28,749 nucleotides of DNA. Source: a virus (Duplodnaviria > Heunggongvirae > Uroviricota > Caudoviricetes). The position numbers and the translations under genes were made by a program. Each line of letters opens with the position of its first letter. Position 1 is the first letter of the stretch. The DNA lies in the IMG/VR virus record IMGVR_UViG_2925914267_000002, one strand, 5' to 3'. The notes under the pieces were generated by a model, which worked only from the letters and a program-made list of their open reading frames with translations, was not told where the DNA came from and did no database searches. This document shows positions 1,659 to 14,114 of this stretch, one piece after another.

Positions 1659-4130
1659 TTAAGAATCAGCCTGACTCGGGATCAGTTTTTGCCAGATAAC
1701 TGAAACGTATTTTGCCTGGTAACGGGCGTCATCAAGTGCATTATGGCGCTCACCTTCGAATGGAATAGCCGTTCTGGCATCGAAGTCTATGGCTTTCCCC
1801 AGCTCAACGATTGTGCGTACATCGCGATCGTTGTAGTAACGCCACGGGCAGGGGATCCCCTGCCGTTCGTATGAACGGCGCAAAATCGTGTTGTCGAAGT
1901 TGGCTCCATTTCCCCAAACCTGAACAAAAAATTCACCGGAGTTTTCGTCGATAAATTCCCGCAATTGTAACAGTGCATCATCTAACGGGATTTCATCGGT
2001 CATAATGGCAGATTGCGCTTCGCGTGATTGCTTAAGCCACCATTTAATGGTGTCCCGATCAATGACTCCGCCAGCAGTTTCCAGATCGATAGTCTTACTA
2101 AATTCCGGTCCCATATCTCCGGTTTGCGGATCGAAAAATATTGCACCTATTGAGATGATCGGGGCATCAGGATTTTTTCCCATGGTTTCAAGGTCGATCA
2201 TTAGATGGTCACACGTCCTGCTGGTGGATGTGATTTCATGATGACCGTTCACCTTAATTGAGTGATCTGCCGTCTCGCCAGTTTCATTATCGCTATTGTG
2301 ATGCTGATTGCCGCCAGTGTTCTCCTTGTGTGGATGTTCAGCGCCTTCCATTTCCTCCGGATCATCTTCCTGAACTTCAACCTGATACTCTTCATCGAAT
2401 GTTTCCTGGTATGTTGCGTCGCCCATCACCGCGCCACAATCAGGGCAGTTGCCGCCGCCGGTCTGACCGCAGGCGGTGCAGACTTTTTCCACTTCCTGTT
2501 GCGCCACTGGTTCAGGCTGTTTCGTTTCTGGCTCGTTTTGTAACGCATTTGGGCTGTTTTGTTCCGCTTTTTGGTAGTTCCGTTCCGATTCATGCTGGTT
2601 CTGGTTCACAGAATCGCGGGTCTGGATCCCCTTAACCCATTTCGGATCATTCGGGTCACTAATCCCTTCAACAAATTCACCACGTGATGCAGCAAGCAAC
2701 TTATCGGCGTCAGGCTGGCTGATATTGGCTGCCTGCATAATTTTGTTTACTTCGTCAGCGGTAACTTTTATCGGTTCTGGTTGTTCTGAATCTTCAGCGG
2801 TATCTACATTTTGCGGTAAGCCCGTGTATGTGCCATTTTTTCGGGCAAAATATTCTTCTTTTGTGATTTCAGTGGCGCCAGCAGCCAGTGCCTTATCCAG
2901 ACCAGAAAGTTTGTTTGCGCGACCGTATTTTTCTCCGTCCTTATCTGCGAAGAGGAAATAGAACGGCCCCTCACGCTCTACAGATGGTTCAGCTTCCGGC
3001 GCGGTTTCATTTTTTGGGATATCAGATACCTCAGTTTCCACTGCATCAGTTTGTGTTTCTGATGACTGGAGAACATCAACAGTGCCCAGGTCTGTTTCTT
3101 CATTCTCAAACACGCCCTTTGTCGTCAGGTATTCGCAGATATATTTGTTCAGTGCTACGGGATCTTTGTGAATGTCGATCGGACGCTCACGGACAAGGCC
3201 AAAAATAGTTTGGCGGTCGTAGCGAAGGGCATCAGGCTGTTTGCGCATTGATGCCGAGATACGCTTCCAGTCTTCGCGGTCGTTGTCGATAACTTCTTTT
3301 TTTGCCCAGCGATGGATGCTGCCGTCAATGTTTCCGGCATCCACATCACCAGGCCAGAGAGCGTAGGCCAGTTCGTCATCCAGTGTTTTCCATGTCTGCT
3401 TGTATTCGCGATGAATGGCAGCAATGACCGGGCTGATTTTTCCTGTTGAATTTTCAGTGTACTGTTGATTGGCTCTGGTGCGGGCGAGATCAACAACAGA
3501 CGTGTATTTTCCGGTTTCCTTGCGTTCACCTTCGCGACGTTTTTTCCAGATGCGCATCTCTGCCTGAATTTCGGGCCATTTAGCACCAGGAATACATTTA
3601 TGCTTAACCCACCCAATGGCGTGCAACTTAAGCTCCGGAAACATGGCGTTAACTTCTGGCATTTTCATCAACGCTTCAACGATATGTCCGTCGAATGTTG
3701 CCATGTCTTCCTGCAACAATTCCTGTGCGCTAATAACCATATCAACGGTGATGTTTTCACATGTGTCGAACTTAACCATGACAGCGTTCTGTACTTCAGG
3801 GGCCAGCTTGTCAAAAGTGACGTTCATCGGATCGGATTTAGTCTCAACCGGGACAAAAGAAGCAGACTCCTCATCCCAGCGGTTTTCCTGCATATATTCA
3901 GCATCCCATGAATCGAGGGCAGGGCGGGGTATGCCAGGTTTATCCTCGCAGACAATAAATTTATAAGCGCAGTCCTGAGCAGCCGGATAATGTTCCAGGA
4001 ACTGCCAGTGAAATTTTGCTCGAGCACGGCGTTCGTCGCCAGCTTCAATGGCTGTGGCTACAGCCACAGCGCCTTCTTCCCTTGTTGCCAGTTCGTCAGG
4101 AATAGCGGCGCAAATAAAGACTTTACTCAT
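1659..4130 (-). CDS. Large prophage exonuclease with C-terminal DEDDh 3'-5' exonuclease domain (often annotated exodeoxyribonuclease VIII-like)
   Basis: 823-aa ORF. C-terminal motifs HLMIDLETMG (Exo I D-x-E), WGNGANFD (Exo II) and HNALDDARY (Exo III H-x4-D). Central acidic low-complexity linker containing a CxxC-x13-CxxC zinc-ribbon-like motif (CTACGQTGGGNCPDCG). Confidence 0.7.
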   Translation of the reverse strand: MSKVFICAAIPDELATREEGAVAVATAIEAGDERRARAKFHWQFLEHYPAAQDCAYKFIVCEDKPGIPRPALDSWDAEYMQENRWDEESASFVPVETKSDPMNVTFDKLAPEVQNAVMVKFDTCENITVDMVISAQELLQEDMATFDGHIVEALMKMPEVNAMFPELKLHAIGWVKHKCIPGAKWPEIQAEMRIWKKRREGERKETGKYTSVVDLARTRANQQYTENSTGKISPVIAAIHREYKQTWKTLDDELAYALWPGDVDAGNIDGSIHRWAKKEVIDNDREDWKRISASMRKQPDALRYDRQTIFGLVRERPIDIHKDPVALNKYICEYLTTKGVFENEETDLGTVDVLQSSETQTDAVETEVSDIPKNETAPEAEPSVEREGPFYFLFADKDGEKYGRANKLSGLDKALAAGATEITKEEYFARKNGTYTGLPQNVDTAEDSEQPEPIKVTADEVNKIMQAANISQPDADKLLAASRGEFVEGISDPNDPKWVKGIQTRDSVNQNQHESERNYQKAEQNSPNALQNEPETKQPEPVAQQEVEKVCTACGQTGGGNCPDCGAVMGDATYQETFDEEYQVEVQEDDPEEMEGAEHPHKENTGGNQHHNSDNETGETADHSIKVNGHHEITSTSRTCDHLMIDLETMGKNPDAPIISIGAIFFDPQTGDMGPEFSKTIDLETAGGVIDRDTIKWWLKQSREAQSAIMTDEIPLDDALLQLREFIDENSGEFFVQVWGNGANFDNTILRRSYERQGIPCPWRYYNDRDVRTIVELGKAIDFDARTAIPFEGERHNALDDARYQAKYVSVIWQKLIPSQADS

Positions 4131-11703: not shown

Positions 11704-11745
11704 GTTCACAGATAAAACACTCTCCAGGAAACCCGGGGCGGTTCA

Positions 11746-13185
11746 AATCAACACGTGGCATGCCGTCATAAAATCTCCATTGAAACCGCAAACCATACCC
11801 TTGATGAAAAACTCTTCATGCCCAAACGGGATGAAGGGATGATTGATGAACATATCGCGAAAAAACGCCTCCGAGATTGGATATTTCATTGTGATCTCAT
11901 CTGTAGCAGGAATAATTTGCCCAGCTACTGCCAACTCATGGTCGATACGCATTCTCGTCATCATTATGGGCCAAATAACTGCCCCATTTGCATCATCAAT
12001 CCCCAATCCTGCGGGTATGTGAGCAAGTGTCATTCCCTCATGATCAATATGTGTTGATCCAAACATCCAAGCTATGCTGTTGGCCTTTTGTTCTATTGCT
12101 TGAGCCTTAAGTCTCTCAATGCTGGTTGGCCGACAGACCAGCATCGCAAGTCTGAAAACCATATCAAACAAATCTCTTCCGACTACCCGACTCTTGGCTT
12201 GATGGACAATCTCACTAATATCTTGAGGGGGAGACTGAAGGATAGACATCTGGTGACGGGATTCGATTTGGTAATCACGCATTTCTTCATACAGCGCAAG
12301 ACGTTCTATTCGGGTTCCTGGAATATTAGCCAGTGCTTCAATAGCATTCTGCATGCAGGCTGCCGAAATCATACCGCCATCTTGGAATTTTGACTCTTCC
12401 AGATGTGTATCGGCAAGAAGCCGCCAGAATTCAAACTGTGTATCTCTGTCACAGCACCTATTCGCAATCGGGATTGCGGTTTTACAGGCATCGACGGCAA
12501 ATGAAAATAATTTTTGAGCCAGATAGTTTTTTGTCAGAAACAGGAGTTCCTGGGCAATAAAAGATGGCTCACTCACTTTACAGTCGATATCGAGTTGCAG
12601 GAGTCGCAGCGGATAAGGTGAATCGCCTTGTTCTCTGGTACGTTCATACTCTGCTAGTAGATGTGCCGAAAGCTGATCAAATTCATCCCTGAAATCAGTA
12701 TTCTTTCGAAAAAAACAACACAGCCTAAGCGCACGCTCTAGGCGTTCTAAAGCACTAACCCACGTCCCTTGCGATGTCATAATAGCTATACTGGACGCAT
12801 AATAAGCACGGACTGCCAGCAAAGGAAAACGGATTCCACCAATTTTACGAACCCAAAGTGTATCAGCAATACGAGCTTGAAGTTCGGGTAGCTCTATCGT
12901 CGGGCAAAATTGAGAAAGTACCTCCAGCGACAACCCGTTAATGTCATCCGGAATTGCAGATCTACCTTGGCTGCTTTGAAAGCACGGACCAAATGGTACC
13001 TGTGGATTTTCGGGACGAAAGTGAAAACCGCAAATATGGGTTAGCAGTCTTATCTCCGCTCTTCCATCACCTAGGCTAGAAAGATACTTTGTGATATCAA
13101 AGCAGGTAACTGGCAGCTTACTCTGGATTAAGGGGGATAAATCAATAGTGTTAAGTTCGTCGAGGCTGATATTAATATCGTCCAT
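11746..13185 (-). pseudogene. N-terminal 480 codons of the IS629-disrupted HEPN-motif gene
   Basis: The 480-aa track ORF ends on a stop codon located inside the IS629 right end (11743-11745), so the native reading frame continues beyond the IS. No NTPase motif seen. Confidence 0.6.
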
Positions 13186-13859
13186 GTCGTCACCTTGATG
13201 ATTTGTTAATGCGGGGGCAACATTAATAAATGTACTTGAGACCGCAATTTGTCGATGGAGCCAACATTTATAACTATGTGCTTCTACCCTCTGAATTTTT
13301 ACATGTGAATTGCTAGCTTGAATAGCTCTATCATTATATACGTGGCACTAAATTATGGCTGTTTTTCGCTCAAAGCGGACTAGAAGGTTAGCTTGTGTCG
13401 GACTTTGCGTATTAAAAGAAGTGCTGGTGGTGACTAGTGGTTGTGCCCCATTTCCACAGAAAAAATCAGAGAAACTATACCCAATAGTTGTATTGAATCA
13501 CTGACGAGACAGCCTCATATTCATCAGGACTGGTCTACGTCCAATACAGGAGGTTGTGGTGCTGGTTCTCAAATGTGCGCTGGCTATTACGGCTGTAATG
13601 GCGATTTATTGTCTTGCTATTGTTCTTATGGATCGCCTTTCTGACTGATTTCATATTGGCGAGGTAACGGTAGTTAAGTAGAATGGCTGCGGGTGCTTGA
13701 GGCTATCTGCCTCGGGCATGAACACCAAAGGCAGATAGAGAAAAGCCCCAGTTAACATTACGCGTCCTGCAAGACGCTTAACATTAATCTGAGGCCAATT
13801 TCATGCTAGACACATGTAGGTTAGCCTCTTACGTGCCGAAAGGCAAGGAGAAGCAGGCT

Positions 13860-14015
13860 ATGAAGCAGCAAAAGGCGATGTTAATCGCCCTGATCGTCAT
13901 CTGTTTAACCGTCATAGTGACGGCACTGGTAACGAGGAAAGACCTCTGCGAGGTACGAATCCGAACCGGCCAGACGGAGGTCGCTGTCTTCACAGCTTAC
14001 GAACCTGAGGAGTAA
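13860..14015 (+). CDS. hokD: Hok-family type I toxin (HokD/RelF-like)
   Basis: 51-aa product MKQQKAMLIALIVICLTVIVTALVTRKDLCEVRIRTGQTEVAVFTAYEPEE from ATG 13860 (RBS AAGGAGAA); single TM helix; matches HokD/RelF as I recall it. An in-frame ATG at 13803 extends the frame by 19 codons. Confidence 0.9.
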   Translation: MKQQKAMLIALIVICLTVIVTALVTRKDLCEVRIRTGQTEVAVFTAYEPEE

Positions 14016-14083
14016 GAGACCCGGCGAGGGAGAAATCCCTCGCCACCTCTGATGTGGCAGGCATCCTCAACGCACCCGCACTT

Positions 14084-14114
14084 AACCCGCTTCGGCGGGT
14101 TTTTGTTTTTATTT
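14084..14114 (+). terminator. Rho-independent terminator at the 3' end of the hok transcript
   Basis: CCCGC-TTCG-GCGGG hairpin followed by TTTTTGTTTTTATTTT. A second hairpin (CGAGGGAGAAATCCCTCG, about 14030-14048) lies just downstream of the hok stop. Confidence 0.6.

Follow-up and report, generated by a model that had tools for sequence, protein, structure and literature searches.

The stretch of viral DNA analyzed here (28,749 nucleotides, from a member of the Caudoviricetes, below referred to as the window) harbors a compact lambdoid (Qin-like) prophage unit at 13490-13660 on the plus strand, between a gene on the minus strand that starts at 13185 and the toxin gene hok (13860-14015). The unit is composed of a promoter, a 5′ UTR of ~30 nt, a Shine-Dalgarno (SD) sequence and a 29-codon frame (13559-13648, plus strand; GTG start, TGA stop at 13646-13648), which encodes the microprotein MLVLKCALAITAVMAIYCLAIVLMDRLSD; its translation reads (M)LVLKCALAITAVMAIYCLAIVLMDRLSD. 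The SD sequence AGGAGG (13548-13553) is followed by the five bases TTGTG and then by the GTG at 13559. The SD sequence, the start and the frame, as well as the placement just upstream of the hok locus, are found as given in the original prediction. ORF calling positioned the start at a GTG one codon further upstream (13556). In relatives this codon is GTC, GTT, ATC, ATT or TAT and, because it is not kept, 13559 is identified as the conserved start of the microprotein, in agreement with the earlier choice.

The hok locus beside the microprotein is intact. A promoter scan identified the neighboring hok promoter, TTGGCG-17-TAGAAT, at 13656-13684 (plus strand), the hok leader with its sok target is located at 13691-13865 (plus strand; Rfam RF01794, 118 bits, E = 6e-28), and the hokD coding sequence (plus strand) matches Pfam HOK_GEF (E = 1e-23). 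The stop codon of the microprotein is found 8 nt from the hok −35 element and 43 nt from the 5′ end of the hok mRNA (13691), and the ORF is located outside the hok transcript as set by the Rfam family model. At the 3′ end of hok and its terminator (14024-14105) there is a sub-threshold match to isrK, a small RNA of Salmonella prophages (25.7 bits, gathering threshold 50, E = 0.004).

The divergent gene (11743-13185, minus strand) gave a match to Pfam DUF7380 (1e-34) and another to PDC-S39 (5e-72), a defence candidate of PADLOC. Truncation has left it with 480 residues, and its homology to the 595-residue DUF4209 gene of strain LR-06 breaks at 11746. The segment 13200-13330 is identical to that of LR-06 (L001) except that the latter holds 19 more bases; these look like a short duplication around TGCTAGCTTGAATAGCTCT, in the region that contains the promoter of the divergent gene.

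Predicted product and expression signals

The microprotein displays a Kyte-Doolittle GRAVY of 1.74, where the most hydrophobic 19-residue window comprises residues 6-24, and the AlphaFold2 model is a single helix (residues 2-29, pLDDT 92). Lys5 precedes the hydrophobic span, the C-terminal tail is D-R-L-S-D, and Tyr17-Cys18 with the flanking Ile is invariant in all alleles. These predictions agree with the earlier description of a hydrophobic one-helix peptide with a charged tail; taken together, hydropathy and helix prediction point to a putative single-pass membrane peptide. The positive-inside rule is the basis for topology calls of membrane proteins, and the distribution of charges suggests that the N-terminus and Lys5 would reside on the cytoplasmic side and the acidic DRLSD tail on the periplasmic side.

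Searches with the microprotein against the Pfam, NCBIfam, PHROGs and PADLOC profiles gave no match. The Pfam HOK_GEF profile (PF01848) gave no hit to it at E up to 1 and BLASTP gave no alignment to HokD at E up to 100; on the BLASTP result, a truncated Hok paralogue was rejected. A phmmer search against 1.84 billion representatives returned only nine matches, each with an identity of 83% or more and each a gene call whose N-terminus is spuriously extended; neither distant relatives nor a parent protein were found in that search. The ORF was also considered as the tail of a decayed larger gene, which was rejected for lack of such a parent and because the conserved SD, start and promoter also speak against it.

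The expression signals were defined from an alignment of the 85 nt 5′ of the start codon in ten lineages with diverged spacers, including the copy on the Shigella virulence plasmid (pINV) and a context that lacks hok. The longest stretch without variation 5′ of the ORF is the predicted −10 hexamer CATATT (13516-13521, plus strand), of which all six positions, like the 17-nt spacing from the −35 hexamer, are fixed in the ten lineages. The predicted sigma-70 −35 hexamer, TTGAAT at 13493-13498 (plus strand), is likewise assigned from conservation: ATTG is invariant, and the forms TTGAAT, TTGAAG, TTGAGT and TTGCTG are found. Further downstream, the motif TACGTC(C/A)AA (13536-13544, plus strand) is conserved in the 5′ UTR between the −10 hexamer and the SD sequence in most lineages. 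Within the SD sequence (plus strand), GGAG is invariant (variants AGGAGG, GGGAGG and AGGAGA), and the gap to the start is always 5 nt, the sequence of which varies. From the position of the −10 hexamer we infer that transcription would start near 13528. The promoter TTGAAT-17-CATATT agrees with the consensus at 8 of 12 positions, i.e., it falls below the threshold of the promoter scan and was therefore missed there. The conservation supports a promoter of the microprotein's own at 13493-13521.

Upstream of these signals, a block of ~130 nt (13359-13492, no strand assigned) is conserved at 83-99% identity in the main prophage lineage only. It is absent or cannot be aligned in the L005, L031 and L142 lineages, and the homology of the pINV copy starts at 13462. 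The block has no Rfam match, no conserved ORF and no fold signal (z = +0.92).

The scan of the window revealed no intrinsic terminator after the microprotein stop, and a terminator-like hairpin inside the ORF (13583-13602) was dismissed because it is not conserved in the pINV copy. The predicted transcript (13528-13690) displays no fold signal relative to shuffled sequences (z = −0.16), and the fold analysis identified no stable conserved stem that would hide the SD sequence. A structured or small RNA at the ORF region was rejected on the basis of this z value and the absence of an Rfam match. On the minus strand, the promoter scan found no promoter-like site over or beside the ORF, and the lone Rfam match is a sub-threshold sok (18 bits, E = 0.23). 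Nor does the locus fit a leader peptide or attenuator, as the downstream gene is not fixed (three contexts) and there is no structure signal.

Coding selection and separability from hok

The pattern AGGAGG-N5-DTG occurs twice in the window, where 0.41 occurrences are expected, and at least two occurrences are reached in 8 of 100 shuffles; ORFs of at least 20 codons are abundant in the region. By itself, the combination of SD and start is not beyond chance, and it is the comparison with relatives that, on present alignments, lifts the frame above it. Loci for this comparison were gathered in two ways, i.e., with an anchor that spans the ORF stop and the −35 region of hok, and with a pattern inside the ORF.

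Among the loci found with the ORF-internal pattern, the frame is unbroken in 109 of 109, where one allele lacks the stop codon. The 27 distinct alleles contain 46 distinct variants, of which 21 are synonymous, 25 are non-synonymous and none is a stop. The synonymous share expected is ~30%, which gives a binomial P of 0.02 for this frame, the best of six. Replacements in the microprotein are mostly conservative (A/T/S/V, V/I, M/L/V/I, D/E/N, L/F and R/H). Few codons of this frame are one mutation from a stop, and 46 variants would contain none with a probability of 0.68, such that the lack of stops carries little weight.

The strongest tests use the pINV copy and the hok-less chromosomal copy L142, both of which are just 77% identical at the DNA level, and gave dN/dS ratios of 0.18 for the window and pINV (Fisher P = 9e-4), 0.13 for the window and L142 (P = 2e-4) and 0.10 for pINV and L142 (P = 2.5e-5). 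In the same three comparisons, the other two forward frames meet stop codons or yield ratios of 0.27-3. Ratios among close relatives are weaker (0.4-0.55 in some pairs). Two independent changes of the start from GTG to ATG are found, one in pINV and one in the L073 lineage, which also holds the sole indel seen in the frame, an in-frame loss of 3 nt (one codon). In the hok-less copies the last codons vary at third positions only. At the nucleotide level, the flanks are conserved to the same degree as the ORF. The comparison of synonymous and non-synonymous changes that had been proposed as a check on the frame thus comes out in its favor, and selection on the frame, start, SD and promoter hexamers of the microprotein is, at the level of sequence comparison, shown. 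Two overlapping candidates, a 67-codon ORF (13441-13644) and a 39-codon antisense ORF (13535-13654), fail the substitution test and gain stops in relatives.

The gene hok is found directly 3′ of the ORF in 97 of the 109 ORF-bearing loci (~89%). Ten of the 109 (nine IMG/VR loci and E. coli E10, which is L142) hold the promoter, SD and ORF but lack hok; here, homology ends ~12 nt past the ORF stop and is followed by a convergent TehB-family gene. Conversely, at five independent junctions at 13606-13626, hok is retained while the ORF is destroyed and everything upstream is swapped. The commonest of these junctions has QueH on its upstream side and makes up 45 of the 139 anchor matches (totals that include two chance matches in unrelated genera). 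Together, these rearrangements show, in terms of sequence architecture, a microprotein module that is separable from hok in both directions. The link to the hok locus drawn in the original prediction is therefore one of position: the ORF adjoins hok, but it is found outside the hok transcript and recombines away from it both ways. The microprotein is missing in 51 of 131 scorable anchor-bearing loci (~39%; IMG/VR and the genome sample) and in K-12, and the gene is therefore dispensable.

The sequence that flanks the hok promoter on its upstream side is at the same time the 3′ third of the ORF (13606-13648), and every hok-keeping junction retains this flank. The five junctions fall within 20 nt (13606-13626) and each leaves 30 nt or more in place before the hok −35 element, which suggests that the hok promoter needs a T-rich flank upstream of −35, possibly an UP-like element. 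This double use may explain the extra nucleotide conservation of the ORF 3′ third.

Distribution, genomic contexts and prior record

The segment 13516-13625, i.e., the leader and the first two-thirds of the ORF, is found at a coverage of at least 80% in 1879 of 5426 complete E. coli genomes (~35%), in up to three copies per genome that are nearly always unannotated, and E. coli holds roughly 2,100 copies in all; one RefSeq record labels the microprotein a hypothetical protein (WP_000960667.1). E. albertii and E. ruysiae have it as well, and so do four temperate phages of known sequence (mEp460_ev081, Tritos, Evi and HannyBb). The record of HannyBb (L008, PP925841.1, 2411-2700) annotates two antisense hypothetical ORFs over the microprotein position and not the forward frame. 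Short contigs with the segment (L011, L015 and L017) have been placed in metagenome-assembled genomes under the names Collinsella, Candidatus Scatousia and Haemophilus, probably through contamination of the bins.

Upstream genes differ by strain and encode DUF4209/DUF7380, QueH, a TPR protein, DUF262, DUF4145 and others; the site, which has the replication module on one side and hok-rem-ydfU-Q on the other, is best described as a hotspot for cargo. Downstream of the microprotein, three contexts are found: hok, icsP and the convergent TehB-family gene. The icsP context is that of the 77%-identical copy on the virulence plasmids of Shigella and enteroinvasive E. coli (135 plasmid records). On pWR501 (L007, NC_002698.1), the segment 3001-3284, which precedes the Shigella protease gene icsP, aligns with window positions 13462-13743 at 77% identity. 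Here, the ORF (3097-3186) is followed by a remnant of the hok promoter, the first hairpin of the hok leader and icsP, the ATG of which is at 3477, and the hok gene is absent. In the S. dysenteriae copy the ORF is identical. The upstream region of icsP is much studied and has an unusual long-range regulation, and its classic regulatory fragment, used in studies of H-NS and VirB silencing, looks to be prophage-derived with an intact small gene inside.

No copy of the microprotein was found near hokD or ompT in K-12, such that K-12 start-site datasets are of no help. In the Qin prophage of K-12 MG1655 (L140), homology is found only from window position 13846, 14 nt before the hok start codon, and the promoter, leader and sok target of hok have given way to relBE. 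In BL21(DE3) (L141, NC_012971.2, ~1591437-1591560), a deletion has joined a shortened DUF977 gene to a point 23 nt upstream of the microprotein SD, by which the native promoter was deleted and the DUF977 frame was extended into the small ORF.

The BL21(DE3) allele has been catalogued previously. Table S4 of Fesenko, Sahakyan, Shabalina and Koonin (2024) gives it as VLVLKCTLAIVAVMAIYCLVIVLMDHLSD (NC_012971.2, 1591437-1591524), and places the family in cluster Escherichia_98807 (size 389, dN/dS 0.46) of Entero67K, a set classed as being under purifying selection (PMC11188072). For this cluster, the readable supplementary text lists coordinates, counts and dN/dS only. The allele taken from NC_012971.2 is identical to the L005-class allele and 25 of its 29 residues are identical to the window peptide; by this comparison, Escherichia_98807 and the microprotein are the same gene family (PMC11188072). 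The same source lists, from Ribo-RET, 13 retapamulin start-site (TIS) reads and 38 ribosome-protected fragment (RPF) reads over 90% of the ORF (PMC11188072). Ribosome profiling, which had been proposed as a check, therefore gives reads on the frame, but these are few and come from a copy that lacks the native promoter and is overlapped by the extended DUF977 frame, i.e., the signal in the tabulated data is thin. Because this copy has lost its promoter, the dataset as tabulated probably understates expression.

An exact-sequence look-up returned the submitters' labels "hypothetical protein" or "membrane protein", with named GenBank entries for the peptide in REL606 (ACT39199.1) and BL21(DE3) (ACT43394.1); for the pINV form there is an entry in UniRef. 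A search of the Sakai small-gene supplements did not return the ORF, and the peptide strings did not occur in the full texts searched. What is already known is thus a family in a computational catalogue and scattered annotations. Relative to the readable literature, the conserved promoter, the position of the gene with respect to hok and the mosaic junctions are new, as are the hok-less context, the pINV copy upstream of icsP and the promoter loss in the BL21 copy.

Interpretation and known systems

We consider it probable that the unit is an autonomous gene for a single-pass inner-membrane microprotein, carried as moron-like accessory cargo of lambdoid prophages and not serving hok. A moderate sigma-70 promoter, TTGAAT-17-CATATT, presumably active, together with a strong SD sequence, would drive the 29-codon frame. 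The module is co-oriented with the early-right operon, such that in lysogens its own promoter would drive its transcription and in lytic growth read-through would do so. The peptide would insert in the inner membrane with the N-terminus in and the C-terminus out, and act as a small accessory protein, most likely binding or perturbing a membrane component in a presumably non-lethal role. It would often, but not necessarily, be parked against the hok promoter.

A second membrane toxin, i.e., a type I toxin with an undetected RNA antitoxin or an unregulated weak toxin that acts alongside Hok in post-segregational killing, abortive infection or lysis timing, is an unlikely identity for the product, even though it is small, very hydrophobic and has one helix with a charged tail, like many type I toxins, and adjoins an intact member of a verified toxin family (hok, 13860-14015). 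The hokW-sokW pair at the equivalent position of prophage Sp5 affects phage release, which would also fit a toxin; the paper on this pair makes no mention of an upstream ORF (PMC8621323). Against a toxin speak the lack of similarity to Hok and of any Pfam, NCBIfam, PHROG or PADLOC family, the scan that gave no promoter-like site on the opposite strand, the unstructured leader (z = −0.16) with its SD sequence not sequestered, and the footprints tabulated for the allele in growing BL21 (PMC11188072). A constitutive-looking promoter combined with AGGAGG would be hard to tolerate if the toxin were potent; a mild toxin would still be compatible with these signals. Of the type I toxin architecture that had been suggested, size and hydrophobicity stand, while no toxin-family match, antisense promoter or SD-sequestering structure was found, and beyond these two properties the assignment is not supported.

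It is improbable that the ORF is a cis-acting element upstream of hok, where read-through would give a 5′-extended hok mRNA or promoter occlusion, tuning hok with the peptide being incidental. The interval from the stop (13648) to the promoter and leader of hok holds no terminator, hok is directly downstream in 97 of 109 loci, and the ORF 3′ third overlaps the hok promoter flank retained at every hok-keeping junction, all of which would suit such a role. However, selection acts on the amino-acid sequence beyond the DNA, the ORF is intact without hok in pINV and in the 10 hok-less loci, and hok loci often lack the ORF (the QueH junction alone in 45 of 139 anchor matches). On these comparisons, a cis role on hok cannot be the main reason for conservation of the peptide.

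A further proposal, that the microprotein is a working partner of Hok, we regard as similarly doubtful. The peptide would then modulate insertion or pore formation of Hok as a protein brake or enhancer, or its transcript would read into hok and give a second, 5′-extended class of mRNA with other activation kinetics. If such a partnership were true, the pINV copy would be an expressed gene or a promoter that contributes to the long-range regulation of the icsP region.

Least likely is the chance ORF that the original prediction had left open, i.e., a frame in conserved non-coding DNA that reflects an upstream element of the hok promoter, binding of a nucleoid protein or recent spread: the flanks are conserved like the ORF, the SD-plus-start motif alone is not significant, the no-stop result is weak (probability 0.68 in 46 variants) and RefSeq annotation is almost nil, but substitutions cluster at synonymous sites in this frame only (P down to 2.5e-5), the last codons of the hok-less copies vary at third positions only, two independent GTG-to-ATG changes keep the start and the single indel is 3 nt, frame, start, SD and length are kept at 77% DNA identity with dN/dS of 0.10-0.18, and an independent catalogue, in its tabulated part, adds a purifying-selection class and a ribosome signal (PMC11188072).

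Returning to the favored reading of an autonomous small membrane protein gene, the locus is an example of a short gene missed by standard annotation in well-studied genomes, here one that is present in ~35% of complete E. coli genomes, in temperate phages that are active and in all of the Shigella virulence plasmids examined. Deletions or reporters around prophage hok loci may unknowingly cut the microprotein gene, and the icsP regulatory fragment contains this gene together with the hok promoter remnant. The variable cargo site, which holds defence-like genes, is bounded on its right by this gene as a conserved edge. If it confers a membrane phenotype, a small factor made of protein alone would be found next to a classic toxin under RNA control; if it does not, it would still be a well-supported entry in the catalogue of small proteins.

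Among the known systems, the Hok/Gef type I toxins invite comparison: the microprotein is adjacent to and co-oriented with hok, and like Hok/Gef it is small and hydrophobic with an N-terminal lysine before the span. In contrast to Hok/Gef, it lacks the ~25-residue periplasmic domain and a HOK_GEF match and is located outside the hok mRNA, and unlike in Hok/Gef with sok, neither mok-like coupling nor fold-back or antisense elements were detected at the microprotein.

Phage morons are autonomous promoter-gene units inserted between conserved phage genes, e.g., bor and lom of lambda. The microprotein unit resembles them in being compact, in having its own predicted promoter and in its location in a variable region between the replication and nin/Q modules; furthermore, its presence varies among otherwise syntenic prophages and the mosaic boundaries hug the unit. 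It differs from morons in lacking an identified terminator (terminator-like hits are found inside the ORF and are not conserved) and from classic morons in being far smaller (29 codons), with lysogen expression that is predicted.

Small inner-membrane proteins of E. coli (the YohP, YncL and AcrZ class) were reportedly identified by Hemm et al. in 2008 from ribosome-binding-site models combined with conservation. Like this class, the microprotein has fewer than 50 residues, one predicted transmembrane helix and a strong conserved SD and start, has no enzymatic domain and was missed by annotation pipelines. Unlike the class, it is prophage-borne and patchy in distribution (35% of E. coli genomes, not K-12), its membrane location is predicted and it has no similarity to the named members. 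In the alignments it nevertheless displays the conserved frame, SD and start together with the signature of purifying selection by which bacterial small membrane proteins (up to 50 residues) are recognized.
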